From Anaerolineae bacterium (GTDB taxonomy: Bacteria > Chloroflexota > Anaerolineae > Anaerolineales > E44-bin32): a DNA stretch of 64,000 nt. Location: NCBI GenBank assembly GCA_030605795.1, contig JAUWHR010000005.1, positions 338 through 64,337 on the forward strand. The letters run 5' to 3'. This document shows, piece by piece, positions 19,666 through 35,127 of the stretch (positions within the stretch are counted from its first letter, which is position 1; each line of letters opens with the position of its first letter). The translations under genes and the position numbers were made by a program. The notes under the pieces are model-generated. The model was not told where the DNA came from. It was given only the letters and a program-made list of their open reading frames with translations, and searched no databases.

Positions 19666-19675
19666 TCCGATTTCT

Positions 19676-19715
19676 TTTACCATAGGGGCGCATTATGATG
19701 TGCCCCTATGGTAAA
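19676..19715 (+). promoter_or_regulatory. Intercistronic 14-bp perfect stem-loop
   Basis: TTTACCATAGGGGC-12 nt-GCCCCTATGGTAAA directly after the SBP stop. Plausibly an mRNA-stabilising or attenuating hairpin. Confidence 0.55.
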
Positions 19716-19727
19716 GATTATTTGATT

Positions 19728-20750
19728 ATGTCTGTACGCTCACTTTTCCTACCTATCAAATCAGTTGGCACTTTTATCAACTGTATTTTCTCTTCCATAC
19801 TAGATTTCTTCATTTCTGCCTTCGACGTTGTGTTTAGCATCCTGCAAAGATGGATTGGCATTCGCGGCATGCCTTATGTTTTCGCACTGCCGAATCTGCT
19901 CATATTTGGCATTTTTATCTTGTTTCCTATGCTGCTCAACTTTGTATATGCGTTCACGGGTGGCATAGAATTTTTCCCCGATCGGCGACCTTGGGTTGGG
20001 ACGGCTAACTTTGAACAGCTCTTGACCTGTGAAGATTTCATCGATCCAAATACCTGCTACGAGGATTTATTTTGGCGTGCTGTCTTCAACACATCAGGCT
20101 ATGTTATTTCACAAGTCGGTCTTATGGTGATCATTTCACTCATAACAGCACTGGTGCTTAACCGCAATATCAAGGCGCGGGGTTTCTTCCGTAGTGTTTA
20201 TTTCTATCCTGTACTCCTGTCGCCGATTGTTGTTGCACTTATTTGGAAATGGATTTTGCAGGAAAATGGTCTGCTTAACGGGAATATCGCTGGTTTGGGC
20301 TACGACAAGGTGCCCTTTATGGTCAATGCCCAATGGGCTCGTTTTTGGGTGGTGATTATCAGCGTGTGGGCGTTTATGGGGTTCTATACGTTGATTTTGC
20401 TGGCCGGTTTGCAGTCGATTCCATCGGAACTGTATGAAGCCGCTAAAATCGACGGTGCAAATGATTGGCAGTTGTTCCGTTGTATCACTTTGCCGCTCCT
20501 GATGCCCACTATGCTGGTTGTGCTGGTGCTGTCCTCGATTCGAGCAGTGCAGATATTCGACGTGGTATTTGCTTTTACGGGGGGTGGTCCGGGCACTGCA
20601 ACGCTATACCTCGTGCAATACATATATGAAAAAGGGTTCTCCAGCCCGTCGAAACAGTTCGGTCTCGCCGCAGGTGCCTCGTTACTCATGGCTGGGACGT
20701 TGATCGTATTGACACTGATTCAACTGCTTTTACGTCGTGAGGAGGCTTAG
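19728..20750 (+). CDS. Sugar ABC transporter permease (MalF/UgpA-like)
   Basis: EAA loop YEAAKIDGANDWQLFRCITLPLL. Multiple TM segments. ATG 19728 (after the hairpin) preferred over track start 19695. Confidence 0.85.
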   Translation: MSVRSLFLPIKSVGTFINCIFSSILDFFISAFDVVFSILQRWIGIRGMPYVFALPNLLIFGIFILFPMLLNFVYAFTGGIEFFPDRRPWVGTANFEQLLTCEDFIDPNTCYEDLFWRAVFNTSGYVISQVGLMVIISLITALVLNRNIKARGFFRSVYFYPVLLSPIVVALIWKWILQENGLLNGNIAGLGYDKVPFMVNAQWARFWVVIISVWAFMGFYTLILLAGLQSIPSELYEAAKIDGANDWQLFRCITLPLLMPTMLVVLVLSSIRAVQIFDVVFAFTGGGPGTATLYLVQYIYEKGFSSPSKQFGLAAGASLLMAGTLIVLTLIQLLLRREEA

Positions 20751-20756
20751 GTAGAT

Positions 20757-21809
20757 ATGAGCGCAGTTACAACATTTCTAGCACGTAGATGCGGCCACAC
20801 GAAACTAAACATCACAGACATCATCACCTACCTATACTTGTTTTTCGGTGTGGTTATCATGTTTGGACCTATATTATGGCTGGTGTTGTCTTCGTTTAAA
20901 ACTGCAGCTGAAGTCATCAAATTCCCCCCTCGTCTGTTACCCTATCGCCAAGACACCATTGTGGTCGAAGGGTATGACGATCCGCTTCCCTTGTTTGAAG
21001 TCACGCTTGATGACGGGTCCACAATCAAACTGGCGCAGGTGCGCCGCATTGGCCTGGAAGGGCAGATGATTGATCCAGCCAATCCTGGCGAAATCATAAA
21101 AGTCCACATCAACGACCGCAAACCGATCGAGTCTGTCGTCTTTGGTTTGGAAAATTACATTGAAGGCGTGCAAAGTTTTAACTTTGGAAGGTATCTCCGT
21201 AACAGTGTAGTTGTAACTGTATTTGCGACGATCTTGACGCTGCTTATCAACAGCATGGCAGCCTTTGCACTGAGCAAATACCGATTCCGAGGACGTACGA
21301 CGATCTTTCTTATCATGATCGGCACGCTCATGGTGCCCCTCTCTGTTGTTCTTGTGCCCGTGTTTTTGGTAATCACGAAGGTCGGCTGGAATAACAACCT
21401 GTTGGGTGTGATTGTGCCAGGTGCAGCCACGCCCACAGGCGTTTTCTTACTGCGGCAGTACATGCTCACCATCCCTGATGAGTTGATCGATGCGGCGCGT
21501 ATTGATGGCGCTAGCGAGTGGCGCATTTACTCACAAATTATTCTGCCGCTTGCACGCCCTGCTCTGGCCGTGTTGACAATCTTTTCGGTGATGTGGCGCT
21601 GGAACGACTTTCTCTGGCCCCTCATTGTATTAAGTCGTAGCGAGTTCTTCACCCTCCAAGTCGGCCTCAACTCATTCCAAGGTGAACTGAACGTCCAATG
21701 GCATCTGATCCTTGCCATGACGATGCTGACGTTGTTGCCGATTACGGTTGTGTTCGCCTTCTTGCAAAGGCATATCACAACGGGTATTGCCACAACGGGC
21801 TTAAAGTAA
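20757..21809 (+). CDS. Sugar ABC transporter permease (MalG/UgpE-like)
   Basis: 350 aa. EAA loop DAARIDGASEWRIYSQIILPLARPAL. An unusually long periplasmic insert after TM1. Confidence 0.85.
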   Translation: MSAVTTFLARRCGHTKLNITDIITYLYLFFGVVIMFGPILWLVLSSFKTAAEVIKFPPRLLPYRQDTIVVEGYDDPLPLFEVTLDDGSTIKLAQVRRIGLEGQMIDPANPGEIIKVHINDRKPIESVVFGLENYIEGVQSFNFGRYLRNSVVVTVFATILTLLINSMAAFALSKYRFRGRTTIFLIMIGTLMVPLSVVLVPVFLVITKVGWNNNLLGVIVPGAATPTGVFLLRQYMLTIPDELIDAARIDGASEWRIYSQIILPLARPALAVLTIFSVMWRWNDFLWPLIVLSRSEFFTLQVGLNSFQGELNVQWHLILAMTMLTLLPITVVFAFLQRHITTGIATTGLK

Positions 21810-21829
21810 ACGACCATAATCAAAACCAG

Positions 21830-23008
21830 ATGGCAGAAGGCATTTTTTCAAATCCCATTTCCATTCCTGTAGAGACAAAGAACGGCTCATTGTTGGCCGA
21901 GGAGAACCGCTTTATCTGCTTACCTGGGTGTGGTCTCTGCTGTTCCTATCGAGTTCTTCTGACCGAGGAGGACAAGCAGAGGTTGATGGCCGCCGGGTAT
22001 GTGAAGAAGGCATCGGAACTATGGGAGACGACCGCCAACAGCGGAACAGCCCTTTGTCGCACGCCAGATTTTTGTCTCTTCCTAGACCCGCAACAAAGGT
22101 GCGGCGCGTATGACTTCCGCCCGGAACAATGTCGCACCTATCCGTACCTGTGGACCAGTTACCTTCGAAAGGAACTGGATGTGGATTTAAGTTGTCCAGG
22201 GCTGGGGCAAGGTGAAAGTACTCCACTGGCATTGCACCAAATTCTGGGTGAGGGCTCGCCACGACTGTCACCGCTGGATGTAGCGATTGGGGAAATTCAT
22301 GCTTTGCTACGCTCCCATGGTTGCTACGCTACACCGGATGCACTTGTGGCAATGGGAATACAATGCATCGAGGAGCTCACTAAAAGTTGGACATCAAACC
22401 GCCATCGCGGGACAATGAGCCTATATGTGAGCCAACTGTCACCGCTACTCGAGAATGCTGAGAAAGGGGATGTTGCCACTAAACTATGGTCAGGTTTTCG
22501 CGTCATCCCTTGTTCCGTTGAGCAACTACTCGCAGACGCGAACTTCATAGGGCGGCATTTTTCGCGACCGCGCTGGAATACACGGCTTGAAAGCGATGGC
22601 TCGGTTGTGTTGTATCGATTCTGGATCTTGGATGGTATTCTTCATGTGAAGGATCGGGGCGAAACGCAACGGGAAATCTTACTAGCTGAAATCGAGGCGA
22701 TCGCCTGGAAAGCAGAGGCGCTTGCCACCCGCCGAGCATATCTCTATCGCTGGTTGAATCGGCAACTGTCGTTGCGCCTAGCGTACAATATGACTGTGGC
22801 CAACTTGATCCAGGGTAGTCATACAACGCTCTGCTACCTCGAATTCATCCTGGAGATTGACCACCGGCTGGTGGTGCTAGCCTCGGCGTTGGCACGAGCC
22901 GGTGGAAAGGATGAGATAGATCGTGAAGTCGCAATTGAGGCCATCCGCGGCAGCGATGGCTTGTTGCGGGCCTGGTGCGAAAGCGCCCGATTGGGCGTAA
23001 CAAACTGA
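21830..23008 (+). CDS. YkgJ-type Cys-rich (CxxCxxCC) zinc/iron-chelating domain protein with long C-terminal extension
   Basis: CLPGCGLCCSYRVLLTEEDKQRL..CRTYPY resembles the UPF0153/YkgJ domain. ATG 21830 preferred; track start 21698 lies inside the permease gene. Confidence 0.5.
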   Translation: MAEGIFSNPISIPVETKNGSLLAEENRFICLPGCGLCCSYRVLLTEEDKQRLMAAGYVKKASELWETTANSGTALCRTPDFCLFLDPQQRCGAYDFRPEQCRTYPYLWTSYLRKELDVDLSCPGLGQGESTPLALHQILGEGSPRLSPLDVAIGEIHALLRSHGCYATPDALVAMGIQCIEELTKSWTSNRHRGTMSLYVSQLSPLLENAEKGDVATKLWSGFRVIPCSVEQLLADANFIGRHFSRPRWNTRLESDGSVVLYRFWILDGILHVKDRGETQREILLAEIEAIAWKAEALATRRAYLYRWLNRQLSLRLAYNMTVANLIQGSHTTLCYLEFILEIDHRLVVLASALARAGGKDEIDREVAIEAIRGSDGLLRAWCESARLGVTN

Positions 23009-23017
23009 CAAATTGAA

Positions 23018-24211
23018 ATGACAGGAGGTCATCGTAGAATGAGTAATAAAACTATCACACGCCACATGCGCAAGATGAGTGCCTGGGAAAAGAATCTATT
23101 GGGGGTGACTGTCGACAAAGTCCCCACCCTGGTGCCAGGGCTGGTGGCCGCCATCCTACTCGCCTGGCTGAGCATCTGGTTGAGCAAGTTCATCGGTGTT
23201 ACGTTGCTGGATTTCGAAAAGACCCCTATTTCGCCGGTGATGTTGGCCATCCTTCTAGGTCTGATCATCAGCACGGTCATTCCGATGCCCAAGGTGCTTA
23301 AGCTCGGTCTCACCTTTGCCGTAAAAAAGGTCTTACGCCTGGGCATCATCATGCTGGGCATTCGCCTGACCATCTTTGACGTGTTCAAGTTGGGCGTATA
23401 CGGCGTGCCCATTGTCGTCATCTGCATTCTGGGCGCGCTTTTTTTCACTACCCGCATCAACAAGTGGTTCAAACTGCCCGAGCGGATGGGCACCCTCATT
23501 GCCGTCGGCACCTCCATCTGCGGTGTCTCGGCCATTGTCGCCACTGGCCCGGCTATCGAGGCCGAGGACGAGGAAGTGGCTTACGCCGTGGCGGTGATTA
23601 CCATTTTCGGGCTACTGGCGACCCTCGTCTACCCCTACGTCGCCCACGCGATCTTTGCTGGTAACGCGCTCAAGGTGGGACTCTTCCTGGGTACATCGAT
23701 CCACGACACATCTCAGGTGGTCGGTTCTGCGACGGTTTACACCGACGTGTTCTTGGCACCGCTGGCCCTCGACACGGCAACGGTCACCAAGCTGGTGCGC
23801 AATGTATTCATGGCCGCGGTAATCCCTTTCATGGCCCTCTACTACACACGCAAGACACAGGGCGAGTCGGCTGGCAAGAAGACCAACTTTCTCAAGCTGC
23901 TGCCCCTCTTCATCCTGGGGTTCCTGACCATTGCGGTGATCCGCTCCATCGGCGACGCCATGCTCAACACTGGTGGCAATGCCTTCGGGTTGTGGGATGC
24001 CGAAAGTTGGCACGACATCTATACCTTTGTCAAGATGTGGGCAGGATACTTTTTGGTCATAGCCCTAGCAGGCGTCGGGCTGAACACCAATTTCCGCACG
24101 TTCAAGGTATTGGGTATCAAGCCCTTCCTTGTCGGCCTAGGTGCAGCGTTGGTGGTCGGCATTATGAGCTATATCGCCATCTCCCTGCTGGGGAGTTTCG
24201 TGACGCTCTGA
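23018..24211 (+). CDS. yeiH: YeiH/UPF0324-family membrane protein (family often annotated as putative sulfate exporter)
   Basis: 397 aa, about 10 TM. LRLGIIMLGIRLT, IAVGTSICGVSAIVATGPAI and LGTSIHDTSQVVG align by eye with E. coli YeiH (LRLGIILYGFRLT, IGAGSSICGAAAVLATEPV, IGSTVHEVAQVV). Confidence 0.75.
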   Translation: MTGGHRRMSNKTITRHMRKMSAWEKNLLGVTVDKVPTLVPGLVAAILLAWLSIWLSKFIGVTLLDFEKTPISPVMLAILLGLIISTVIPMPKVLKLGLTFAVKKVLRLGIIMLGIRLTIFDVFKLGVYGVPIVVICILGALFFTTRINKWFKLPERMGTLIAVGTSICGVSAIVATGPAIEAEDEEVAYAVAVITIFGLLATLVYPYVAHAIFAGNALKVGLFLGTSIHDTSQVVGSATVYTDVFLAPLALDTATVTKLVRNVFMAAVIPFMALYYTRKTQGESAGKKTNFLKLLPLFILGFLTIAVIRSIGDAMLNTGGNAFGLWDAESWHDIYTFVKMWAGYFLVIALAGVGLNTNFRTFKVLGIKPFLVGLGAALVVGIMSYIAISLLGSFVTL

Positions 24212-24241
24212 CCTAATACGTAAACGGGAAGGAGTTTAGAC

Positions 24242-25258
24242 ATGGTTAAAGTAGGCGTAGTCGGTTTCGGTACTATCGGCGAGCGTATCGCCGACGGCAT
24301 CGCCAAGCAGAAAGATATGGAACTGGTCGGCGTGGTCGACGTGGCTCCTTCGCTACCGGTGCGCGCCTTGGTCGAGTCGGGCCGGGGGTATCCGATTTAT
24401 TGCAGCTTACCGGAGCGCATCCCGACGATGGAGCAGGCCGGTATCCCCATCACCGGGACGCTAGACGACCTGCTGGAGCAGGTGGACATGGTCTGCGACG
24501 CCACCTCGCCGGGCATCGGTATGAGGAACAAGGAGATCTATAAGAAGCACGGCGTCCCGGCCACGTTCCAGGGTGGGGAGAAGCACGAGATCAGCCCCAT
24601 CTTGTTCAGCAGCACAGCCAACTACGACGCGGCCAAGGACATAGATTACATCAAGCTGGTCTCCTGCAACACGACCGGAATCGTCCGGACTGTTGTGGCT
24701 ATGGACGACGCCTTTGGAGTGGAAAAGTCGGTGGCCACCATCGTCCGCCGCGCCGCCGACCCCTCGGAGATCCACAAAGGGCCGATTGACGCCGCTATTC
24801 CGAGCAAGGTTCCCGCGCACCAGGCCACCGACCTGATGCGGGTGTTGCCCCACGTGGACGCGATGGGCTTTGTCATCACTGTGCCCACCACCCACGGTCA
24901 CGTCATCGCCATGCACGTGACGCTGAAGAGCGAGATCACTACCGAGAACGCGCTGGAGGTGTTCCGCCAGGGACGGCGCATCTGCACCTTCCGCATGGAG
25001 GACGGCTTCCTGTCCAACACCCACATCTTTGACTACCTGCGCGACTTGGGCGTTCCCCGCGCCGACATGTACGAAGTCGGCATTTGGAAGGAAACGGTTC
25101 TGGCACGAGGCCGTGACCTGTACTGGATCCACAACATCCCCCAGGAGGCCATCGTCATCCCGGAGACCATCGACGCCATCCGCGCACGGATGGGCATGCA
25201 GGCCGACAAGTGGGACGCGGTGGATGCCACCGACCGCTACTTGGGCATTGCTAAGTAG
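24242..25258 (+). CDS. gap: Archaeal-type (type II) phosphorylating glyceraldehyde-3-phosphate dehydrogenase family
   Basis: 338 aa. VGFGTIGERIADGIAKQKDMELVGV, FQGGEKHE, catalytic VSCNTTG and IVRRAADP closely follow archaeal GAPDH, not the bacterial GapA pattern. Confidence 0.85.
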   Translation: MVKVGVVGFGTIGERIADGIAKQKDMELVGVVDVAPSLPVRALVESGRGYPIYCSLPERIPTMEQAGIPITGTLDDLLEQVDMVCDATSPGIGMRNKEIYKKHGVPATFQGGEKHEISPILFSSTANYDAAKDIDYIKLVSCNTTGIVRTVVAMDDAFGVEKSVATIVRRAADPSEIHKGPIDAAIPSKVPAHQATDLMRVLPHVDAMGFVITVPTTHGHVIAMHVTLKSEITTENALEVFRQGRRICTFRMEDGFLSNTHIFDYLRDLGVPRADMYEVGIWKETVLARGRDLYWIHNIPQEAIVIPETIDAIRARMGMQADKWDAVDATDRYLGIAK

Positions 25259-25281
25259 CAGCCGCCAGCTGGTTGGTTGAC

Positions 25282-26550
25282 ATGAGCCTGGAAGTTCTAA
25301 CCCTCGACGACTTTGAGCTGCAGGACCGGACCGTCTTGCTGCGGGTAGACATCAACTCGCCGGTGGACCGCCAGACGAAGGTCATCAAGGACGACACGCG
25401 CATCCGCCGTTGCCTACCGACCATTCGTGAGCTGGCCGAGCGCGGCGCGCGGACGGTAATACTGGCACATCAGGGGGACCCGCTCGACTACCAGAACTTT
25501 ACCCCGCTGGCCCAGCACGCCGAGTTGCTGTCTCAACTGCTGCAGCGATCGGTCGAGTACCTGGACGACGTGGCTGGGCCAGCGGCCCGCGAGCGCATCC
25601 GCGCCCTGCATGACGGCGAGATCCTCCTGCTCGAGAACGTGCGCATCCACACCGAGGAGACCATCATCTTCGAGGAGGAGGTGCGTCTCAGCCCGGCAGA
25701 ACAGGCGGATACCTATGTGGTGCGCAACCTGGCGCCCCTGGCTGACTTATATGTCTGTGACGCCTTTGCCGCCGCTCACCGTTCTGAACCGACGCTGACC
25801 GGATTCCCACAGGTCATGCCCGCTGCCGCGGGGAGGCTGTTCGAGGAGGAGCTGAGGGTGCTCACCCAGGTGCGGGGTCAACCCGAACGGCCTTGCCTAT
25901 TCTTGCTGGGAGGGGCGAAGATCCTCGACGCCTTCAAGATGATGCGTGCGGCTCTCGAATCGGGCACGGTCGATGGCTTGTTGACTGTCGGATTGACAGG
26001 CGAGATCATGCTCATCGCCGCGGGATACGACCTGGGTAAAAAAACATATGGTTTCCTAGAGTCGAAGAATTTACTTAGCTTTGTTGAACCATCTAAAGAA
26101 CTGCTTGACGCCTTCGGCGATCGCTTGCACTACCCGCTTGATGTGGCTGTAAAAAAAGACGAAGGCCGAGAGGAGCTCCTTTGCGATGGACTACCAGCAT
26201 CCGAGTTGATAGCAGACATTGGGCAACTTACGATCGAGGACTATCGAGCGCGAATCACCGCAGCGCAGACCATCTTTGTGAATGGCCCGGCTGGAGTCTA
26301 TGAAGAGGACCCCTTCGCCATCGGCACCCGCGCCCTGTGGGAGGCGATGGCGGCCTCGGATGCCTTCACTGTCATCGGCGGCGGAGATAGCATTGCCGCG
26401 GCCCGCAAGTTCGGCGTGTTGGATGGATTCTCCTATGTCTGCACAGCGGGTGGTGCTCTGGTGCGCTTCTTGGCCGGGGAGCCGCTACCGGTAGTCATCG
26501 CCTTGGAAGAAGCCGCCGTCCGGCATCGAGGGGAGGCTGGTGCGAGATGA
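25282..26550 (+). CDS. pgk: Phosphoglycerate kinase family, archaeal-like
   Basis: LTLDDFELQDRTVLLRVDINSPV..DDTRIRR..ILAHQGDP is the archaeal PGK N-terminal pattern. C-terminal GGGDS and TAGGA. Stop overlaps the next start (ATGA). Confidence 0.85.
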   Translation: MSLEVLTLDDFELQDRTVLLRVDINSPVDRQTKVIKDDTRIRRCLPTIRELAERGARTVILAHQGDPLDYQNFTPLAQHAELLSQLLQRSVEYLDDVAGPAARERIRALHDGEILLLENVRIHTEETIIFEEEVRLSPAEQADTYVVRNLAPLADLYVCDAFAAAHRSEPTLTGFPQVMPAAAGRLFEEELRVLTQVRGQPERPCLFLLGGAKILDAFKMMRAALESGTVDGLLTVGLTGEIMLIAAGYDLGKKTYGFLESKNLLSFVEPSKELLDAFGDRLHYPLDVAVKKDEGREELLCDGLPASELIADIGQLTIEDYRARITAAQTIFVNGPAGVYEEDPFAIGTRALWEAMAASDAFTVIGGGDSIAAARKFGVLDGFSYVCTAGGALVRFLAGEPLPVVIALEEAAVRHRGEAGAR

Positions 26551-27551
26551 ACAAGCTGACAAGTTGGCCGGAAACACGCGGTTTTCGCATCCTGGGGCTG
26601 ACCTATGGTCTCGCCTCAAACAATGGTGAGTTAATCCACAACCCGGTCCACTTCGAACCAGGTGAGATCTACACTCAGATCACCAACTGGGAGAAGCTAG
26701 AATATATTGATTATGGGCCAGGCATGAATGCCTATTGTCACCTGCTGGATGACCCTGATCTCCCATTCGAGATCATCGCCGATGAAAAAGAGCTATTCAT
26801 CCAGGGTGACCTAAGTCGCCTCGAACGAGATGGCAAGGATAAGCGTTGGAACATACTGGGGAACATTGGTATCTGGTTCCGCTACGCTTTGGCCACCCAG
26901 GAACGGCATGGCATCTATAGTTTCCATGCCTCGTCAATTTACAAGCCACAGGAAAACGAATTGCTGGTGATCGTTGGAAAAGGAGGGGTGGGGAAAACGG
27001 TCTACTTGCTTGAATCGCTTACCCAAAGCTATCAAATCTTCAGCACAGAGATGACTTACTTCCGGTACGTACCGGAGGGTGTGGTTTTCTACCGGGGTGC
27101 GCTGATGGATAACATTCGAGTGGGGAGTTTTTTATACGATTTCCCCGAGGCGGCAGAGCGCCTATGCCTGGATTTGCCACAAGTTGCAAATCCCTGGGAG
27201 GCCAAGATCAGCGTGGATATGCACTCGATAACGACTGCTAAGGATGAATTGCTCAACCCAAAGCTGTCCTTTATATTCCCCCGAATTGAGGCAGGGTACG
27301 AGCACTCGATTATAGAGAATGTAGCCCTTCCGCGAACGTTGACCCGGTTATTGTTTGATAGTGCTTCCGAAAAGATCGGTAGTACGATACTGATGTATGA
27401 GGAATTGCCAGCCGTTGGATTAGACACCCCTGCACTGGCCCAAGCCCGTTGGCAGGCGGTCTCGAGGTTGGTGGCTGCTCCCCAATGGGAAATCAAACAA
27501 GCCAGGAGGATCCTGGCTGGACCAAAATCCTGCATGGAAGGAATTGATTAA
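26547..27551 (+). CDS. HprK-like/PEPCK-like P-loop kinase-fold protein, substrate unknown
   Basis: 334 aa. FHASSIYKPQENELLVIVGKGGVGKTVYLLESL resembles the H-x-S..G-x-G-K-(S/T) core of HPr-kinase-related kinases. Coupled to pgk upstream and comA downstream. Confidence 0.45.
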   Translation: MNKLTSWPETRGFRILGLTYGLASNNGELIHNPVHFEPGEIYTQITNWEKLEYIDYGPGMNAYCHLLDDPDLPFEIIADEKELFIQGDLSRLERDGKDKRWNILGNIGIWFRYALATQERHGIYSFHASSIYKPQENELLVIVGKGGVGKTVYLLESLTQSYQIFSTEMTYFRYVPEGVVFYRGALMDNIRVGSFLYDFPEAAERLCLDLPQVANPWEAKISVDMHSITTAKDELLNPKLSFIFPRIEAGYEHSIIENVALPRTLTRLLFDSASEKIGSTILMYEELPAVGLDTPALAQARWQAVSRLVAAPQWEIKQARRILAGPKSCMEGID

Positions 27552-28353
27552 AATGGGTAAGAAAGCATGGGAAGGCGTGTTCAGCATGCCTCAACCAGGA
27601 CGCAGCATGAAGCCGCGCACCAACGGCTTCACGATGGTGTTGGACAAGGGTCTGGGCCGTTATCAAACCGAGGACCTTATGGCGACCGCCTCTGACTATA
27701 TCGACTTTGTGAAGTTCTCCTTCGGCACGTCGGCTTTCTATGACGAGCAGGTCCTACGCGAGAAGGTCGAGATCGTGACCGGCGCTGGCGTGGGCATTTA
27801 TCCCGGTGGAACGTTCCTGGAAGTGACCGTGTGGCAGGATAGTTATGCTGACTATCTGCGGCGCGCTAAGGAGTTGGGCTTCACTGCGATCGAGGTATCC
27901 GACGGCACATTGCAGATGTCAGACGAGGTGCGCGCCGACTGCATCAAGCGCGCCCTGGATGCCGGCTTCGAGGTCATCACCGAGGTGGGCAAAAAGAGTC
28001 CTGACGAGGAGGTGGCCGTGGCCGAGATGCACCGGCTCATTGCCCACGATCTGGACCTGGGGGCGCTCCTGGTCATCGTCGAGGCCCGCGAGGCCGGCAA
28101 GGGCGTGGGCATCTTCGACAAGTCCGGCGCGGTGAACGAGAGCCAGGTGGATCAGATTATCTCCGGTGTGGATGACCTAGACAAGCTGATGTGGGAAGCG
28201 CCGATCAAGAACCAGCAGCAGTACCTGATCTTGCGCTTCGGCAATAATGTCAACCTGGGGAATATCCCCACCACCGACGTGCTGGCCTTGGAGGCCTTGC
28301 GCCAGGGGTTGCGCGGAGACACACTCAAGCGGGCGTTGCAGCAGGGGTTGTAA
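27544..28353 (+). CDS. comA: (2R)-phospho-3-sulfolactate synthase ComA family
   Basis: Near full-length by-eye match to methanogen ComA: VLDKGL, DYIDFVKFSFGTSA, YPGGTFLE, GFTAIEVSDGT, EVGKK, EAREAGKGVGIFDK, NLGNI, LRQGLRGDT. The start may be ATG 27553. Confidence 0.85.
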   Translation: MIKMGKKAWEGVFSMPQPGRSMKPRTNGFTMVLDKGLGRYQTEDLMATASDYIDFVKFSFGTSAFYDEQVLREKVEIVTGAGVGIYPGGTFLEVTVWQDSYADYLRRAKELGFTAIEVSDGTLQMSDEVRADCIKRALDAGFEVITEVGKKSPDEEVAVAEMHRLIAHDLDLGALLVIVEAREAGKGVGIFDKSGAVNESQVDQIISGVDDLDKLMWEAPIKNQQQYLILRFGNNVNLGNIPTTDVLALEALRQGLRGDTLKRALQQGL

Positions 28354-28364
28354 CCACGTAGTGT

Positions 28365-28404
28365 GTATTGCGTGTTCCTTTACGCAATGTGCACTACGCA
28401 ATAC
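28365..28404. promoter_or_regulatory. Cluster of three TATTGCGT/ACGCAATA motif copies upstream of pfk-like gene
   Basis: GTATTGCGT (28365-28373), ACGCAAT (28382-28388) and ACGCAATAC (28396-28404). The outer copies form an inverted repeat. Confidence 0.4.
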
Positions 28405-28416
28405 GGAGCATAGTTC

Positions 28417-29661
28417 ATGAGCAAACCGTTACCCGACATCCTCGTTGTCGGCCAATCTGGCGGCCCAACGCCGGTGATCAACGCCAGCCTGGCGGGCGTG
28501 ATTAGTGAAGCGCAGAAGCACGATTGCTTCAGCGGCATCTACGGCCTGGTGCACGGTATCGAGGGCGCACTCAAGGAAGAGCTGCTCGATCTGAAGACTG
28601 AAACGGCCGCCAACCTCGAACTGCTGGCCCACACCCCGGCCTCGGCACTGGGATCCTGCCGTCACAAGTTATCCGACGACGACTATGACCGCATCCTGGA
28701 GGTCTTTGGCGGCCACAACGTGCGGCATTTCATCTACATCGGCGGTAACGACTCGATGGACACCTGTCACCGCATCGCGCAAGTGGCCGCTACATCTGGC
28801 TACGATATGCAGGTGATGGGTGTGCCCAAGACCATCGACAACGACCTGGCCTTCACTGACCACTGCCCCGGCTACGGTAGCGCAGCCCGCTTCCTGGCGC
28901 TGGCGACCCGTGATACTGGCCGCGACCTAGAAGCGATGGCGACCTTCGATGATGTGACTATCCTGGAGGCGATGGGACGTAACACCGGGTGGCTGACCGC
29001 TGCTTCTGTGCTGGGCAAGGAAACGGAGGATGAGGCCCCCCATCTTGTCTATGTGCCCGAGGTGCCTTTCGATGAACAGTGCTTCTTGGATGACGTGACC
29101 CGCGTCCACGACCGGTTGGGGTGGGTATTCGTTGTCGTCAGCGAAGGGATCCGGGATGCCGACGGCCAGTTTATCGGACAGCACAAGCTGAGAGGTGGCG
29201 GCAGCGATGCCTTTGGGCACGTCGTCCATTCCCTAACGACCGGTGTGGCTGCTTACCTCACAGACGTAGTCAGGGAAGGGTTAGGCTTACAAGCCCGTTT
29301 TCTACGTCCCAGCCTGATCGAGCGGGCGATGAGCGCCTGCGTATCCGAAACCGATCGGAAGGAGGCATGGCAGGTAGGCGTAGATGCTGTCACACACCTA
29401 GTTGCGGGTCGCAGCGGTTACATGGTCACGCTTGAACGCGTCTCGGATGATCCATATCATTGGGAAACCGGGCTAGCCTCATTGGATGAGGTCGCCAATG
29501 CCGAAAAGCTTCTCCCCAGTGATTTTATAAATAATGCCGGGGATATGCCCACCCAGCGCTTTAGGGATTATGGGCTACCGCTGATCGACGGCCCTCTATC
29601 GCACCTGGCCCGGTTGAGAGGGACACGGGTTCTAAAAAAAGTTAATCAAGGTACAGCTTGA
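28417..29661 (+). CDS. PfkA-family phosphofructokinase (ATP- or PPi-dependent, undetermined)
   Basis: 414 aa. GQSGGPTPVINAS, IGGNDSMDT and PKTIDNDL motifs. Confidence 0.85.
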   Translation: MSKPLPDILVVGQSGGPTPVINASLAGVISEAQKHDCFSGIYGLVHGIEGALKEELLDLKTETAANLELLAHTPASALGSCRHKLSDDDYDRILEVFGGHNVRHFIYIGGNDSMDTCHRIAQVAATSGYDMQVMGVPKTIDNDLAFTDHCPGYGSAARFLALATRDTGRDLEAMATFDDVTILEAMGRNTGWLTAASVLGKETEDEAPHLVYVPEVPFDEQCFLDDVTRVHDRLGWVFVVVSEGIRDADGQFIGQHKLRGGGSDAFGHVVHSLTTGVAAYLTDVVREGLGLQARFLRPSLIERAMSACVSETDRKEAWQVGVDAVTHLVAGRSGYMVTLERVSDDPYHWETGLASLDEVANAEKLLPSDFINNAGDMPTQRFRDYGLPLIDGPLSHLARLRGTRVLKKVNQGTA

Positions 29662-29768
29662 TTAATTAGGAATATCAATGCCTTCTTCTTACTCCCCCGT
29701 TGCTAGGGGTCATATGACCCAAATATAGACCCCCCCTAGCAGAATATAGCAATCGGAGGCAGCTAACC

Positions 29769-30812
29769 ATGTCAACAGAATATTCGCTTGGTGATTACAA
29801 ATTCAACCTGAAAGCTTTCTTCCCCGCTCGCATCTTTGAGATGATCACCGACATCCGAGTGGATAAGCCAGAGATCATCGAACAGCAAGCGCTGACCCGC
29901 AAACGTCGTCCGCGCCTGACGCGGGATGGCAAGCTCACCATTCTGGCGGCCGATCACCCCGCTCGTGGGGTCACTGTTATTGGAGACGACCCGTTCAAGA
30001 TGGGAAACCGTCACCAATACCTGGGGCGCATCCTGCGGGTGCTGATCGCCACCGATTTTGATGGTTTCATGAGCACAGCTGACATGATCGAGGACTTGAT
30101 CATTGTGGATTACCTGGTGCAAAAAGGTGGCGGACCTTCCTTCCTGGATGAAAAGGTGCTGATTGGCTGTATGCAGCGCGGAGGTGTCGCCGGAGTGGTC
30201 GGCGAACTAGACGATCGCTTCGGTTCGTATTCCGCCGAATCCATCGCCCGCTTCCGGCTGGATGGCGGCAAAATGATGTTCCGTTTTGTCCCCGACGACG
30301 AGCGCACACTGTGGCAGATTGACTACTGCTCTAAAGCCATCACCGACCTTTATCGTTATAACCTAGTACCCTTCGTTGAGCCGCTGCGCATGGATTACGT
30401 GGACGGCAAATGGGTCAGCAAGAACACAGCTGACGAGCTGGTCAAGCTGGTCGGAGTGATCGGCGGCATGGGCGATTCGTCACGCTGCACATGGATGAAA
30501 CTCCCCTACTGCCAGGATTTCCACCGGGTCACAATGGCGACAACCCAGCCCATCCTCATGTTGGGTGGGCCTTCCAAGGAGGATCCACGACATACTTATC
30601 GAGACTTTGCTGCCGGCATGGCAACCCGCAACAACGTGCGCGGCGCGCTAGTAGGTCGCAACGTCTCTTTCCCCGGATTTGATGACCCGGCTGCCATAGC
30701 CCAAGCAATCAACGAGATTGTCCACCGGGGGATTTCCGCCGACGAAGCCATTGAGGTAACATTAGGTCACCGGGATAAGAAAATAGATTTCCTGACAAGT
30801 TACATAACATAA
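29769..30812 (+). CDS. Class-I-aldolase-like (beta/alpha)8 protein (Cgl0159/DeoC-LacD-like family)
   Basis: 347 aa. LTILAADHPARG, CMQRGGVAG, ELDDRFGSY, DGGKMMFRF, FVEPL and WMKLPY match my recollection of the Cgl0159-family TIM-barrel pattern. Confidence 0.6.
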   Translation: MSTEYSLGDYKFNLKAFFPARIFEMITDIRVDKPEIIEQQALTRKRRPRLTRDGKLTILAADHPARGVTVIGDDPFKMGNRHQYLGRILRVLIATDFDGFMSTADMIEDLIIVDYLVQKGGGPSFLDEKVLIGCMQRGGVAGVVGELDDRFGSYSAESIARFRLDGGKMMFRFVPDDERTLWQIDYCSKAITDLYRYNLVPFVEPLRMDYVDGKWVSKNTADELVKLVGVIGGMGDSSRCTWMKLPYCQDFHRVTMATTQPILMLGGPSKEDPRHTYRDFAAGMATRNNVRGALVGRNVSFPGFDDPAAIAQAINEIVHRGISADEAIEVTLGHRDKKIDFLTSYIT

Positions 30813-30823
30813 AAGTAGAATGT

Positions 30824-30835
30824 GCGTATTGCGTA
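30824..30835. promoter_or_regulatory. Fourth copy of the TATTGCGT motif, upstream of the GH4 gene
   Basis: GCGTATTGCGTA at 30824-30835, in the 109-nt gap before 30922. Confidence 0.35.
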
Positions 30836-30921
30836 TCTCGAGCTTTACTCAATAAGAAAGGTGGAACTTAAACTAGCGACGAAATCCCGGCGATAAACCT
30901 CACAAACAATCGAGGTGAACA

Positions 30922-32313
30922 ATGGTAAGAACGCCCAAAATCGTCTGTATCGGCGCAGGGAGCGCTATATTCGGCCTGAGCAATATGGCCAGCATCGTTC
31001 GCAGCCCACGGTTGCGCGGCTCGGAATTAGTGCTAGTAGACATTGATGAAGCTGGTCTAAAAACGATGACCAGACTTGCCCAGATAATGAACGAGTCCTG
31101 GGACGCAGAAATGACAATTTCCGGCACGACCGAACGCGAGGAGGCGCTTCCCAACGCCGACTTCGTCGTGGTCTCGGTGCAGGTAGGTCAGCGGGAAGAG
31201 GTATGGGAGTTGGATTGGAAGATTCCCCTCAAACACGGCGTGCGCCAGCCCTACGCTGAGAACTCAGGACCGGGGGCCTTTGCCCACACAGCTCGCAACG
31301 CTCCCCTGATCCTCGCCATCGCACAAGATATGGAACGGCTGTGCCCAGATTCTTGGTTCCTCAACTTCACCAACCCCTTGATCCGGTTGACCTGGGTTGT
31401 GCAGCGCTATACCAAGATCAAGGTCGTCGGGCTCTGTCACCAATTGTTTTGGGCATATGCGATGGCCGCGACGGTGCTGGCAGATCGCTGGGGGCTGCAA
31501 ATTCCTGAGGGTTTTCATGTCCACACCAACTATGACAACGAGGCGAACCTCATTCCGGTGATCCTTGAAGGCCATAAACATATGGACATCAAGGCAGCGG
31601 GGCTAAACCACTTTTCGTGGGTGTACGATATCCGCGACAAAGAGACCGGAGAGGATCTTTACCCGCACCTGCGCGAGAGATGGCTCCAACATTACCGGCG
31701 AGACTTCGAACCACTGACGCGCGAGATGTTCGAGATCTTCGGCTTGATGCCCACCGCGGGCGACGCGCATATGTGTGAGTATCTTCCCTGGACACACGAT
31801 CCCCTCACCAAGCCCTGGGAAAAGTACAACCTAACCTTGCAGAGCTGGGAAGGCAACCGACGACGCCGCGCCGACCGCATTGCAAAGGCAGAAGCCATCG
31901 TGGCCGGGGAGCAGCCGGTGGATCAACTGAAAGATGCCATCAGCGAGGGTGTGCCGGAGATTGTTGAGGCGATCACCTTCAACGACAACCGCTACTACCA
32001 CCAACTTAACCTTCCGAACAACGGCCTGATTCCCAACCTACCCGACGACGCCATCGTCGAGGTGCCGGGCGTGATCTCCGGCTTCGGCATCAAGGGGTTG
32101 GGGGTCCCGCCTCTACCGGAAGGAATCGCCGAGCTCTGCCGTCGCGAGCTGGCGCTCAGCTCGCTTGTCGTAGACGCCGTGGTTCATGGCGACCAAGAGT
32201 TGGCTTTGCAGGCCCTGATGCTTGACCCAATAATGAACGACATTGACCGAGCAAGAGCCATCCTGGATGACTTCCTGATGACTTTCGCCGAATACCTTCC
32301 GCAATTCGCATGA
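30922..32313 (+). CDS. GH4-like NAD(+)/metal-dependent glycoside hydrolase
   Basis: 463 aa. N-terminal Rossmann KIVCIGAGSAIFG, LVLVDID, FLNFTNP and VGLCHQ, as in family 4 glycosidases. Confidence 0.75.
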   Translation: MVRTPKIVCIGAGSAIFGLSNMASIVRSPRLRGSELVLVDIDEAGLKTMTRLAQIMNESWDAEMTISGTTEREEALPNADFVVVSVQVGQREEVWELDWKIPLKHGVRQPYAENSGPGAFAHTARNAPLILAIAQDMERLCPDSWFLNFTNPLIRLTWVVQRYTKIKVVGLCHQLFWAYAMAATVLADRWGLQIPEGFHVHTNYDNEANLIPVILEGHKHMDIKAAGLNHFSWVYDIRDKETGEDLYPHLRERWLQHYRRDFEPLTREMFEIFGLMPTAGDAHMCEYLPWTHDPLTKPWEKYNLTLQSWEGNRRRRADRIAKAEAIVAGEQPVDQLKDAISEGVPEIVEAITFNDNRYYHQLNLPNNGLIPNLPDDAIVEVPGVISGFGIKGLGVPPLPEGIAELCRRELALSSLVVDAVVHGDQELALQALMLDPIMNDIDRARAILDDFLMTFAEYLPQFA

Positions 32314-32319
32314 CCTTGA

Positions 32320-33597
32320 ATGGAGGTCGTGTTGGAGTTCCGCATTCCCTACGGTAAAAACCACTTGAGCTTCCTTCTCCCCGATGGTTTGGAAATCGAG
32401 GTGGTGGAACCAGCAGAGACTCCCGCGGTTCCTGATCCCCTCGGTGAGGTAGAAGCAGCGCTTGCAGTACCAGTGGGCAGCGTCGACCTGATGGCTTTCC
32501 GCGGTGCCCGTTCTGTCGCCATCGCCATAAACGATAAGACCAGGCCGGTCCCCAACCAGCATCTCCTACCGCCTATGCTGGCGCGTCTTGAGGATCTCGG
32601 GTTGACGCCGAAAGCAATCCGTTTTATTGTCGCTACCGGCGTTCATTCCACGATGTCGCCGGAGGAATTTTTTAGCGTCCTCCCAGAGGAAATCCTCACT
32701 CGATATCTTGTAGGCTGTCACGACGCCGACGATCGCGGGAACCTGGTGCATCTCGGCACAACTTCGCGCGGCACTCCAGTGTGGGTCAACCGGTCCTTCG
32801 TGGAGGCCGATCTGCGGATTGTCGTGGGTAACATCCAACCACACCAATTCCAGGGCTTCACTGGTGGGGTCAAGGGTGCCGCCATCGGGTTGGCTGGGCG
32901 CGAGACCATCAATCACAACCACGCCATGATGGTCGATCCTGGCGCACTATTGGGGCACTTCGCCAATAACCCGGCTAGGCAAGATGTGGAAGAGATCGGC
33001 CAAAGGATCGGGGTTCACTTCGCCTTGAATGCTGTTCTGAACCAGGATAAGGAGATCGCGGCTGTCTTCGCCGGGGAACCGCGCGCAGTGCTGTTGAGAG
33101 GCATCCCCGTGGTCCGCAGACTTAGCCAAGTGCCTGTCAGTGAACCTTTCGATCTCGTTATCGCTTCACCCGGGGGTCACCCTGAGGACATAAACCTGTA
33201 CCAGTCGCAAAAGGCACTGGCCCACGCGGCCTTGGTCACCAGAGATGGCGGCACGGTGATCTTGGTCGCGGCCTGTCCCGAGGGGGTGGGAAGTATGAGC
33301 TACGAGCGGTGGGTGGAGGGAATGACCTCCCACGAATCCGTCATCCAGCGGTTCAAGCAAGAGGGCTTCCGCGTGGGACCGCATAAGGCCTTCCAGATCG
33401 CCAGAGACGCTGCGCGGTTGCGCGTGCTGGTAGTCTCCCAGATGCGCGCCAACTTGGTGAGACGGCTGCTGTTGACGCCGGCAAGCAGCCTCGACGAGGC
33501 AATATCCCAGACTCTGGGCACTATTCGGCGAGAGGCGCGCGTGGGTGTAATGCCTCGGTCTAGCGCCACCATACCGACGCTGGAAAAGATAGCGTGA
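32320..33597 (+). CDS. LarA-family (nickel-pincer cofactor) 2-hydroxyacid racemase/epimerase homolog
   Basis: 425 aa. INDKTRPVP, ATGVHSTMSPEE, QPHQFQGFTGGVKG and INHNHAMM align by eye with L. plantarum LarA (SDHTRPVP, ATGFHRPST, ESHFFAGFSGGRKS, MANHS). Confidence 0.7.
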   Translation: MEVVLEFRIPYGKNHLSFLLPDGLEIEVVEPAETPAVPDPLGEVEAALAVPVGSVDLMAFRGARSVAIAINDKTRPVPNQHLLPPMLARLEDLGLTPKAIRFIVATGVHSTMSPEEFFSVLPEEILTRYLVGCHDADDRGNLVHLGTTSRGTPVWVNRSFVEADLRIVVGNIQPHQFQGFTGGVKGAAIGLAGRETINHNHAMMVDPGALLGHFANNPARQDVEEIGQRIGVHFALNAVLNQDKEIAAVFAGEPRAVLLRGIPVVRRLSQVPVSEPFDLVIASPGGHPEDINLYQSQKALAHAALVTRDGGTVILVAACPEGVGSMSYERWVEGMTSHESVIQRFKQEGFRVGPHKAFQIARDAARLRVLVVSQMRANLVRRLLLTPASSLDEAISQTLGTIRREARVGVMPRSSATIPTLEKIA

Positions 33598-33615
33598 AAC
33601 CAAGGAGCACTTCCA

Positions 33616-35127
33616 ATGGCGAAGTACATCGCTGCATTGGACCAAGGGACGACCAGCACCCGCCGTATTATTTTTGATCACGACGGGACGGTGGTCAGCG
33701 TCGCCCAGAAGGAACACAACCAGATCTATCCTCAACCTGGCTGGGTTGAGCACAACCCAATCGAGATTTGGGACCGGACGCAGGAAGTGATACGGGAAGC
33801 GACCGCAAAAGCGGACGTGCTACCTGGCGACATCGCCGCGGTGGGGATCACCAACCAGCGTGAAACAGCCGTCGTATAGAACAAGAATACTGGCCAACCC
33901 TATTTCAACGCAATCGTCTGGCAAGATACCCGTACCAAGAATATCTGCGATGAACTGGCAGCCGAGGGCGGCCAGGACCGGTTCCGCAGCAAGGTTGGCC
34001 TGCCTTTGATGGCATACTTCTCTGGCCCCAAGATTAAATGGATTCTTGACAACGTAGATGGGGTTCGTCAGGCGGCGGAGAGAGGGGAAGCTCTCTTTGG
34101 CAACATCGACACCTGGGAGATGTGGTGGCTGACGGGTGGGCCTGACGGCGGTGCCCACATCACGGATGTGACCAACGCCAGTAGAACGATATTGATGAAC
34201 CTGGAAAACCTGGATTGGGACGACGAAATCCTTGATACTCTGGGAGTTCCGCGTCAAATGCTGCCCCGTATCGTACCTTCCAGTGATCCAGACATCTGGG
34301 GAAACACGCCGAAGAATGGACCATTCGGAGATATAATCCCCGTCTGTGGGGATCTGGGTGATCAACAGGCTGCCTTGGTCGGCCAAACCTGCTTCAACCT
34401 AGGGGAGGCCAAGAACACCTATGGCACAGGTTGCTTCATGCTCCTCAACACTGGCACCTCCCCGGTGCCATCTAAAAGCGGCCTGCTGACCACCGTCGCC
34501 TATGGTATTGCCGATCAACCTACGGTCTACGCTCTTGAAGGCTCCATCGCCATCACCGGCGCGCTAGTCCAATGGCTGCGCGACAACCTGGGCTTGATCA
34601 GCAAGTCGGTCGAAATCGAGGACTTGGCCAGGACGGTGGAAGACAACGGGGGCATCTACTTAGTTCCGGCGTTCTCTGGACTTTTCGCCCCCTATTGGCG
34701 GTCGGACGCCCGTGGTGTCATCGTGGGGTTGACACGCTACGTCAACAAAGGCCACTTCGCGCGCGCTGCGCTCGAGGCCACAGCCTATCAGACACGTGAG
34801 GTGTTGGATGCGATGGAGAAAGATACCGGCGTAGCATAGAAGGCCCTAAAGGTTGATGGCGGTATGGTCTACAATGAGCTACTCATGCAGTTCCAGGCTG
34901 ACATACTGGGTGTCCCAGTCATTAGACCGGAGGTCGCTGAGACTACATCGTTGGGCGCCGCTTACTCAGCTGGGCTGGCTGTGGGTTTTTGGGACAACCT
35001 GGAAGACCTGCGGTCCAATTGGCAGGTTGGCAAGACCTGGGATCCGAAGATGGAGGAGGGGGAGCGTGAGCGGCTTTACCAAAGCTGGCTGAGGGCCGTC
35101 GCCCGCACCTTCGACTGGGTTGAGTAG
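33616..35127 (+). pseudogene. glpK: Glycerol kinase with two in-frame TAG codons
   Basis: [26 protein letters not shown] and [16 protein letters not shown]. One frame throughout. TAG 33877-33879 sits where GlpK has Trp (..ETxVW). TAG 34837-34839 is just before ..LKVDGG. Confidence 0.85.

Follow-up and report, generated by a model that had tools for sequence, protein, structure and literature searches.

A Chloroflexota operon with glycolysis-like enzymes and a proposed route from a sulfonated sugar to phosphoenolpyruvate and sulfite

Sulfoquinovose, whose production published abstracts put at ~10 billion tonnes a year, is a substrate of two related routes: sulfo-EMP (YihS, YihV, YihT and YihU in E. 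coli) and, in Gram-positives, sulfo-EMP2 (an SqvD/SftI-type isomerase, SqiK and SqiA). Both follow the logic of isomerase, 1-kinase and aldolase, giving dihydroxyacetone phosphate (DHAP) and sulfolactaldehyde, and the C3 sulfonate is excreted as dihydroxypropanesulfonate (DHPS) or sulfolactate. The sulfo-EMP2 kinase SqiK is a phosphofructokinase-family enzyme. To our knowledge, complete breakdown otherwise depends on SuyAB-type lyases, on oxygenases or on a partner organism with a glycyl-radical enzyme. The SuyAB/SuyZ route (Paracoccus, Chromohalobacter) converts (S)- to (R)-sulfolactate, with SlcC and ComC together acting as racemase, desulfonates the product to a C3 acid and sulfite, and uses a PSE-family transporter. 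Coenzyme M biosynthesis in methanogens and spore sulfolactate synthesis in Bacillus (YitD, YitC) share the ComA family of phosphosulfolactate synthases and the phosphosulfolactate and sulfolactate intermediates. Here we analyse an operon that has features of all these systems, found in a 64,000-nucleotide stretch of an Anaerolineae bacterium assembly (GCA_030605795.1, contig JAUWHR010000005.1, positions 338 to 64,337), hereafter the window.

We lean, if only slightly, to the view that this operon catabolises sulfoquinovose or sulfoquinovosyl glycerol completely, with sulfite released by a ComA running in reverse to give phosphoenolpyruvate (PEP). The genes with their order and coupling, their family membership, the fixed substitutions, the orphan's predicted fold and the patterns of co-occurrence come from the data themselves. 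We infer the upper part of this route by homology and the lower part from operon anatomy and comparative genomics, and all substrates and the direction of flow are proposals of this kind. The putative isomerase of the window is SftI-like, as is that of sulfo-EMP2 (PMC12890257). Unlike in the two sulfo-EMP routes, the aldolase is Cgl0159-like rather than YihT or SqiA, the glycosidase belongs to glycoside hydrolase family GH4 rather than GH31, neither YihU nor SlaB is present, and the C3 sulfonate would be degraded with a gain of ATP instead of being excreted. SuyAB is also missing: we propose in its place an ATP-dependent 2-phosphorylation followed by ComA, leading to PEP and not to pyruvate, with inversion by LarA and not by two dehydrogenases. 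Compared with the coenzyme M pathway, the partner of ComA is a putative P-loop kinase rather than the phosphatase ComB, ComC and ComDE are absent, and ComA stands among catabolic genes and would run in reverse. The chemistry would be that of lower glycolysis (thioester oxidation with phosphorolysis, transfer from an acyl phosphate to ADP, a 2-phospho-acid, and β-elimination to PEP), yet acting on a C3 sulfonate, with the mutase replaced by a racemase and an ATP-dependent kinase, with sulfite leaving instead of water, and with fixed active-site substitutions in the enzymes.

The operon occupies a single strand (+) from 15657 to 35127, with 16 genes in ~19.5 kb and intergenic gaps of at most 109 nt:

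15657-16904, + strand: ROK-family transcriptional regulator with an N-terminal winged helix (PF00480, 202 bits, plus HTH_24 and MarR_2); first gene of the cluster
16917-18260, + strand: putative sulfoquinovose isomerase, SftI homologue, aldose to ketose (NF048012)
18370-21809, + strand: ATP-binding cassette (ABC) importer, with a solute-binding protein (18370-19665) and two permeases (19695-20750, 20757-21809) (SBP_bac_1, SBP_bac_8)
21830-23008, + strand: cysteine-cluster protein with a CxxCxxCC domain (PF03692, 40.6 bits)
23018-24211, + strand: YeiH/PSE-family membrane transporter, putative sulfite exporter, SuyZ-like (PF03601, 226 bits)
24242-25258, + strand: type II glyceraldehyde-3-phosphate dehydrogenase (GAPDH)-like dehydrogenase, 338 aa (NF003251)
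25273-26550, + strand: phosphoglycerate kinase (PGK)-like kinase, 425 aa (PF00162)
26547-27551, + strand: orphan P-loop protein, 334 aa, with a PEP-carboxykinase-like predicted fold and no Pfam or NCBIfam family
27553-28353 (alternative TTG start at 27544), + strand: ComA, phosphosulfolactate synthase family (TIGR03849, PF02679)
28417-29661, + strand: phosphofructokinase-family enzyme, pyrophosphate-dependent subfamily (NF010675, PF00365)
29769-30812, + strand: Cgl0159-like aldolase (PF22649, 220 bits)
30922-32313, + strand: GH4 NAD-dependent glycosidase (PF02056, PF11975)
32320-33597, + strand: LarA-family nickel-pincer racemase (NF052595)
33616-35127, + strand: interrupted glycerol kinase gene, a probable pseudogene and the last gene of the cluster (FGGY_N and FGGY_C pieces in one frame)

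An earlier note on this DNA had singled out the four genes from the GAPDH-like dehydrogenase to ComA, which are the middle of the operon in an Anaerolineae-type Chloroflexota bacterium, and had suggested a four-gene module of apparent archaeal ancestry gained as a unit. The reading frames, peptide motifs and junctions it described are all where it had placed them, the ABC-transporter and ROK context is borne out by profile matches, and the genes are indeed tightly coupled: pgk and the orphan gene overlap as ATGA at 26547-26550, and the orphan stop (TAA, 27549-27551) ends one base before the comA ATG at 27553, which has a GGAAGGA ribosome-binding site 9-16 nt upstream. For the PGK-like gene, an in-frame ATG at 25282 is a likelier start than 25273. 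The idea of a four-gene unit found no support. Among 25 related loci from metagenomes and reference genomes (L numbers below), what stays constant is YeiH-orphan-ComA, usually accompanied by LarA; the three genes are neighbours in all Chloroflexota loci whose flanks are long enough (L001/L007, L002, L004, L006, L008, L009, L010, L012, L013, L014, L015), whereas the GAPDH-II/PGK pair is optional and found in a subset only (window, L001/L007, L004, L006, the edge of L005, L016, L018, L022), either between YeiH and the orphan, as in the window, or elsewhere. The orphan adjoins ComA in at least 17 loci. Divergent orphans also stand beside ComA in L016 (48% identity), L022 (37%), L023 and the Lentisphaerota locus L018 (seen by profile comparison only, at 97% hhalign probability). 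YeiH adjoins the orphan-ComA genes in L002 and the other flank-complete Chloroflexota loci and is nearby in L016, L018 and L023.

What surrounds this core is variable. A GabD-like aldehyde dehydrogenase lies immediately upstream of YeiH in L014 and an aldehyde:ferredoxin oxidoreductase lies by the same core in L009 and L010; the oxidation step appears to be interchangeable around the core. The genes feeding it also change: the window, L005 and L006 have phosphofructokinase, Cgl0159-like aldolase and GH4 glycosidase, L010 and L013 have a small transaldolase with a GH31 enzyme, and L004 and L018 have a transaldolase. Because the core is fixed while the oxidation step and the feeder modules swap, sulfolactate would be the common intermediate; the pattern points to YeiH-orphan-ComA(-LarA) as a sulfolactate-disposal machinery, with sulfolactate as the likely hub. 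In L009, an aspartate-type aminotransferase, the aldehyde:ferredoxin oxidoreductase, a ComC-like dehydrogenase (best model: L-sulfolactate dehydrogenase) and LarA follow 3' of the core (11687-21001), an arrangement that fits cysteate or sulfopyruvate entering the same core. L018 has an additional gene of the TauE family, which we take to be a family of sulfite exporters, and in L001 pyruvate dehydrogenase genes lie downstream. As for YeiH, its PSE family counts among its members SuyZ from the sulfolactate sulfo-lyase cluster, and sulfite export has been proposed for SuyZ (PMC11582611).

The ComA of the window scores above the cut-off of its equivalog model (TIGR03849, 348 bits against 280; PF02679, 306 bits) and matches the M. 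jannaschii ComA structure 1qwg (225 bits, 236 residues aligned), with conservation of the EVGKK lysine, the proposed catalytic residue. It is nearer to the M. jannaschii than to the B. subtilis enzyme, and the earlier note's assignment stands. The partners of the coenzyme M pathways (ComB, ComC, ComDE and XcbC-E) are all absent from the window, and a ComC-like gene occurs in some sister loci only (L005, L009, L025). We propose that this ComA runs as a 2-phosphosulfolactate sulfite-lyase forming PEP. The opposite direction has to be weighed here, since every characterised ComA is biosynthetic (coenzyme M pathways): the trio would then trap sulfite on PEP, the kinase-fold protein would make sulfolactate, possibly with ATP, and YeiH would export it, amounting to sulfite detoxification or sulfolactate biosynthesis beside a sulfosugar operon. 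A rough estimate suggests that forming sulfolactate and ATP from PEP, sulfite and ADP could be favourable overall, and the trio stands alone in L002, L008, L012 and L015, where no homologues of the window sugar genes were seen, the loci being incompletely annotated. Yet the missing coenzyme M partners speak against biosynthesis, and LarA, linked in at least ten loci, would be useless if (R)-sulfolactate were exported. Moreover, the genes sit inside a single-strand catabolic operon with importer, glycosidase, kinase and aldolase, their links to candidate sulfolactaldehyde-oxidising enzymes and to the pyruvate dehydrogenase genes of L001 fit breakdown, and the YeiH relative SuyZ serves a sulfite-releasing pathway. 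We consider this alternative quite improbable.

Searches of Pfam (E up to 10), NCBIfam and PDB profiles gave the orphan protein no family, only generic P-loop noise. Its close homologues number at least 252, and the 120 listed show 63-98% identity; all lack a name and a Pfam domain, and where a source is named, which is the case for a few, it is an Anaerolineae or Chloroflexota assembly. The family makes up 170 clusters at 50% identity among 1.84 billion representative proteins. It is thus a small unannotated family, bacterial as far as sampled. Its invariant motifs are a GKxGxGKT P-loop (144-151), TExT (167-170) and RGAxxDNIRxG (183-193). An AlphaFold2 model built with 27 sequences (pLDDT 83.5, pTM 0.85) matched, over its full length, only PEP carboxykinases (PEPCKs) in Foldseek (PDB E 1.8e-8, probability 1.0), and in a viral library the single significant match was a giant-virus PEPCK (E 1.6e-9). 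In hhalign, the family and E. coli PckA gave a weak local match (42 columns, 21% probability), used solely for mapping, that places the invariant His127 on PEPCK His232 and the P-loop on 248-255. The likeness is one of fold alone: neither membership by sequence profile nor the residues of the oxaloacetate/CO2 site were found.

On these grounds we treat the orphan as a small-molecule kinase of PEPCK fold and propose, from the predicted model, that it may be an (R)-sulfolactate 2-kinase. It would share with the PEPCK/HPr kinase fold the full-length model match, the P-loop and the preceding His aligned to His232. PEPCK itself likewise phosphorylates the C2 oxygen of a C3/C4 acid bearing an anionic group on C3, and PEPCK crystal structures, by their PDB titles, hold sulfopyruvate or sulfoacetate as analogues. 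The orphan differs in being ~200 residues shorter, at 11-13% identity, and in showing no sign of carboxylase chemistry. The earlier note had called it a kinase, a guess from the P-loop that family searches did not back but that the predicted PEPCK-like fold now supports. As to direction, no ATP can be made from the phosphate ester of a secondary alcohol, and for this reason the kinase should run towards phosphosulfolactate. We also considered a desulfonating PEPCK acting on sulfopyruvate and rejected it, as it is chemically implausible and would leave ComA without a role. The orphan gene has a G+C content of 50%, against 60-62% in the flanking GAPDH-like, PGK-like and ComA genes; the two permease genes have 46-49%.

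By its Pfam name ComA acts on (2R)-phosphosulfolactate, and Cahn-Ingold-Prelog priorities are unaffected by phosphorylation. Sulfoquinovose yields (S)-sulfolactate (PMC10762992). The (S) product and the (2R) ester of ComA therefore call for an inversion, which LarA could provide. LarA lies near the orphan and ComA in the window and in L001, L004, L005, L006, L009, L010, L013, L018, L023 and L024, and we propose it as a sulfolactate racemase working from (S) to (R). Its best solved match is the malate racemase Mar2, and LarA-superfamily surveys do not mention sulfolactate, the sulfonate counterpart of malate.

A sister clade of the GAPDH-II (52-54% identity) shows where a carboxylated substrate could come in. 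There, GAPDH-PGK-LarA clusters are accompanied by malic enzyme (L019, 9001-14455; L020, 9001-13915) and the same GAPDH/PGK subfamily signatures are kept, L019 also having transketolase halves and inositol-type genes, which suggests an ATP-yielding route from malate semialdehyde through D-malate and L-malate to pyruvate. One could suppose that the window works in the same way, with GAPDH-II, PGK and LarA turning malate semialdehyde into D-malate and L-malate, for instance, and with ComA and the orphan unrelated to it, as the shared signature and a LarA above the malate racemase threshold would allow. However, malic enzyme is absent from the window and from the ComA-linked loci, and the pair is linked to ComA in four divergent lineages. 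Several genes indicate sulfonates: those for a ComA that exceeds its equivalog cut-off, for transporters of the YeiH/SuyZ and TauE types, for a dehydrogenase resembling ComC and for the SftI homologue. This makes carboxylated substrates in the window very unlikely. In Moorella glycerini (L017, 5515-16261), GAPDH-II, PGK and LarA accompany a full pyruvate-dehydrogenase-type complex and there is no ComA; ahead of these genes lie a weak homologue of the orphan family (91% in hhalign), genes for a short-chain dehydrogenase and a cyclase, and split PEP-utilising proteins.

The GAPDH-like protein passes its family models (NF003251, 400 bits, cut-off 185; TIGR01546, 342 bits, cut-off 233) and contains FQGGEKHE, VSCNTTG and IVRRAADP; the PGK-like protein (PF00162, 372 bits) contains RVDINSPV and ILAHQG. 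The best solved matches of the two are Pyrococcus and Methanothermus enzymes, the PGK-like protein scoring 312 bits with the archaeal P. horikoshii PGK versus ~230 bits with bacterial PGKs, and the archaeal sequence type noticed earlier is real. A recent archaeal acquisition is another matter. Between the GAPDH-like protein and four solved archaeal GAPDHs, identity reaches only 38-44%, against 51-99% for its best 120 homologues, and the named sources among the listed subfamily members (Chloroflexota, Lentisphaerota, Bacillota, Omnitrophota) are all bacterial. Both glycolytic homologues belong to old, widespread bacterial subfamilies which, with an orphan that is bacterial as sampled, argue against that origin.

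We aligned 114 full-length members of the GAPDH-II subfamily with the four solved archaeal enzymes. Ser141, Cys142, Asn143, Thr144, Arg169, Arg170, His193 and His220 are invariant in 114/114, and five changes are fixed in the subfamily and absent from all four solved enzymes: K33D, H194Q, L218H, M219G and H300P. In the M. fervidus GAPDH, His193 and His194 contribute to one phosphate site and an Arg pair holds the substrate phosphate, while a Lys in the N-terminal domain accompanies NADP use in archaeal GAPDH (PMC12041015). In the comparison with archaeal anion sites that the earlier note had suggested, Arg169/Arg170 and His193 are kept, but the inorganic-phosphate site is incomplete, with Gln for His194, and Asp replaces the NADP-associated Lys33 in every member, where all four archaeal enzymes have His and Lys. 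Two of the fixed changes, L218H and M219G, adjoin the catalytic His. The enzyme would thus retain the machinery for thioester formation, phosphorolysis and binding of an anionic tail in a partly remodelled pocket, and it probably uses NAD. We propose it as an NAD-dependent phosphorylating 3-sulfolactaldehyde dehydrogenase.

The PGK-like enzyme tells a similar story. Arg65 (pig-muscle numbering) is one of three arginines, with Arg122 and Arg170, that grip the 3-phosphate in PGK (PMC7729029). Its equivalent is Asp in 125 of the 126 sequences of the subfamily alignment (HQGDP or HQADP, versus HLGRP or HQGKP), and a new Arg appears at position 188. The equivalents of Arg122, Arg170, His62, Asp23 and Asn25 are kept, and D26, N28, R43, H66, R124, R170 and K216 are invariant across the subfamily. 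The residues of the nucleotide site and of the hinge are conserved, as are the ligands of the 2-hydroxyl. We propose the protein as an ATP-forming sulfolactoyl-phosphate:ADP phosphotransferase. The GAPDH-like gene always travels with the PGK-like one, and therefore the only sensible reading is that an acyl phosphate would be made and used for ATP.

One could instead assign the pair to the DHAP half of the sugar as ordinary glycolytic isozymes, leaving sulfolactate to the orphan, ComA, LarA and YeiH and the oxidation of sulfolactaldehyde to an enzyme encoded elsewhere. Both proteins are above curated thresholds and keep their catalytic residues, Arg169/Arg170 and the Arg122/Arg170 equivalents. 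Yeast PGK mutants in Arg65 reportedly stay active, which also fits glycolytic isozymes. However, the operon encodes no triose-phosphate isomerase, mutase or enolase, and in L001, L016 and L022 the pair is linked to orphan-ComA without sugar-cleavage genes in reach. Sister loci have a non-phosphorylating aldehyde dehydrogenase or an aldehyde:ferredoxin oxidoreductase by the same core, and the malic-enzyme clade is linked to LarA and not to glycolysis genes. Isozymes would also have to accommodate a changed phosphate-site His and cofactor determinant in 114/114 sequences and a changed Arg65 equivalent in 125/126. We regard glycolytic isozymes as unlikely. Most likely, as the earlier note had proposed, the genes share a special substrate series rather than serving housekeeping glycolysis, in view of the fixed active-site changes and the recurrent linkage to sulfonate genes.

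The substrate is suggested by what the note had overlooked, namely LarA, the exporter and the sulfoquinovose context, taken jointly. The only NCBIfam match of the isomerase is NF048012 (E 2e-94, full length, 317 bits), with homologues in L010 and L014. The phosphofructokinase-family enzyme (NF010675, 482 bits, cut-off 273) and the Cgl0159-like aldolase, presumably related to the DeoC/LacD type, are both kept in L005 and L006. We propose the former as sulfofructose 1-kinase and the latter as sulfofructose-1-phosphate aldolase giving DHAP and sulfolactaldehyde. The GH4 glycosidase, kept in L004, L005 and L006, could by inference be a sulfoquinovosidase with sulfoquinovosyl glycerol as its substrate. 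The case for this sugar rests on the isomerase match, which is below threshold, and on the genes specific to sulfonates. None of the known sulfolactaldehyde reductases or dehydrogenases (YihU, SlaB; beta-hydroxyacid or aldehyde dehydrogenase) is encoded in the operon, so the GAPDH-like enzyme is the only in-operon candidate for this step. The ABC importer set is kept in L004, L010 and L014 (76-84% identity), and no ATPase gene for it lies within the operon. The closest NCBIfam models of the ROK regulator are Mlc and NagC, both under cut-off; L014, L018 and L022 have homologous ROK genes.

Put together, the ABC system would import sulfoquinovose or sulfoquinovosyl glycerol and the GH4 enzyme would strip the aglycone. 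The SftI-like isomerase would give sulfofructose, the phosphofructokinase-family kinase sulfofructose-1-phosphate, and the aldolase DHAP and (S)-3-sulfolactaldehyde. The GAPDH-II-like enzyme would then turn sulfolactaldehyde, NAD+ and phosphate into 3-sulfolactoyl phosphate, from which the PGK-like enzyme, with ADP, would form (S)-sulfolactate and ATP. LarA would convert this into (R)-sulfolactate, the orphan would use ATP to phosphorylate the 2-hydroxyl, giving (2R)-2-phospho-3-sulfolactate, and a reversed ComA would eliminate sulfite to leave PEP, a step like that of enolase but with sulfite leaving. Export of the sulfite would fall to the YeiH/SuyZ-type transporter. Throughout a complete copy of the Embden-Meyerhof pathway, the sulfonate would thus stand in for the sugar phosphate. 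By our own bookkeeping the ATP balance would be that of glycolysis, with two invested (sugar kinase, sulfolactate kinase) and four returned, and the cell, rather than excreting the sulfonated C3 half, would obtain from it one net ATP, one NADH and pyruvate. The net conversion of sulfolactate to pyruvate and sulfite would be the SuyAB reaction, and so thermodynamically equivalent overall. The ComA step would be pulled by pyruvate kinase and by low sulfite; the need to keep sulfite low, on our estimate, would account for the constant exporter gene.

Several observations weigh against this route. By a rough estimate, the addition of sulfite to PEP is probably favourable and the ComA step probably uphill under standard conditions, and running it in reverse would need high phosphosulfolactate and very low sulfite and PEP; the biosynthetic role of all characterised ComA enzymes points the same way. 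The isomerase falls well short of the SftI equivalog cut-off (317 bits against 700). LarA is above the NCBI malate racemase threshold (NF052595, LarAH5 family, 549 bits against 462), and malate could be its true substrate. The GAPDH-like and PGK-like proteins pass family thresholds and retain most phosphate-binding residues, and residual or real activity on glyceraldehyde-3-phosphate is conceivable. We know of no GH4 sulfoquinovosidase, and the GH31 enzymes of L010 and L013 lack a clear YihQ signature for sulfonate binding, with the Arg301/Trp304 region in an alignment gap and Phe for Tyr508 in one of the two. Finally, the cysteine-cluster protein is without a role in the route. It has eight invariant Cys in its alignment and no sequence match in the PDB, its N-terminal domain being the only clue. 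Of the eight distinct loci in which GAPDH-II accompanies orphan/ComA or cysteine-cluster genes, seven have its gene; it lies beside GAPDH-II in the window, L001, L004, L016, L018 and L021, and is absent from the malic-enzyme and Moorella loci. The frame of this gene is open from 21698, and the ATG at 21830 clears the permease stop.

A broader proposal, to which we give slightly less than even credence, is that anaerobic Chloroflexota and some Lentisphaerota run a complete sulfonate Embden-Meyerhof pathway, and that a widespread GAPDH-II/PGK subfamily acts on non-phosphorylated acidic 2-hydroxyaldehydes (sulfolactaldehyde, or a carboxylated analogue in the malic-enzyme clade). Its upper half and its sulfolactate logic resemble known pathways; as a whole, the proposed route appears undescribed in the literature covered. 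Two reviews from 2026 on how sulfoquinovose is catabolised are silent on ComA, phosphosulfolactate and GAPDH, and a full-text search, with most subscription journals outside its coverage, found no "sulfolactate kinase", "sulfolactyl phosphate" or similar term. In the same literature, "sulfoquinovose" co-occurs with "phosphosulfolactate synthase" in a single paper, where ComA stands in the reference list alone. If true, the route would dispense with oxygen and radical enzymes, as far as enzyme families tell, and capture the second C3 half with a gain of ATP. It would bring a new mode of C-S cleavage, 2-phosphorylation followed by ComA-type elimination, and four new enzyme activities, one of them in a wholly unannotated protein family. 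Anaerolineae would be candidate mineralisers of plant sulfolipid, and the labels "type II GAPDH", "phosphoglycerate kinase", "malate racemase" and "phosphosulfolactate synthase" could mislead in bacterial metagenomes.

The operon is flanked by mobile-element remnants. Upstream lie group II intron RNA domains (7740-7919 and 8244-8316), without an obvious intact reverse transcriptase, then an N-terminal fragment of DUF4158, which we take to be a Tn3-type transposase domain, and an insertion-sequence-like helix-turn-helix protein (12484-13815; 14619-15383). Downstream lie integrase fragments (one at 36618-37022), an integrase (38982-40139) and a conjugative-element-like block. On the - strand at 45000-61000 (GC skew ~ -0.25), we found genes for a DnaB-like ATPase, a histidine kinase with a response regulator, a replication-relaxation protein and a TraG/VirD4-type coupling protein; with the integrases, this block looks like an integrative conjugative element beside the operon. 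The interval 42000-45000 has a positive GC skew of +0.25 to +0.27 and a 408-aa open reading frame (43271-44497) without a Pfam family. Direct or inverted repeats of at least 13 nt between 10000-15700 and 35100-40600 were absent, as was a tRNA gene, which leaves the island without defined borders. Because the operon sits between such remnants, transfer of the entire cluster is plausible.

At its 3' end, the glycerol kinase gene has an in-frame TAG at 33877-33879, where relatives have Trp, and another at 34837-34839, where they have Leu. Compared with the E. coli and B. subtilis GlpK sequences, these replace different amino acids. Reassignment of the stop codon was considered and rejected, since TAG terminates the GAPDH-like gene and three other genes of the operon; this looks like a recent pseudogene, not recoding. 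A scan of the operon for promoters and terminators gave counts near the shuffled expectation. Directly 3' of the solute-binding-protein gene, a perfect-looking hairpin with a 19-bp stem (19675-19716) overlaps the listed start of the first permease frame, and may be an mRNA-stabilising or attenuating element setting the ratio of binding protein to permease.

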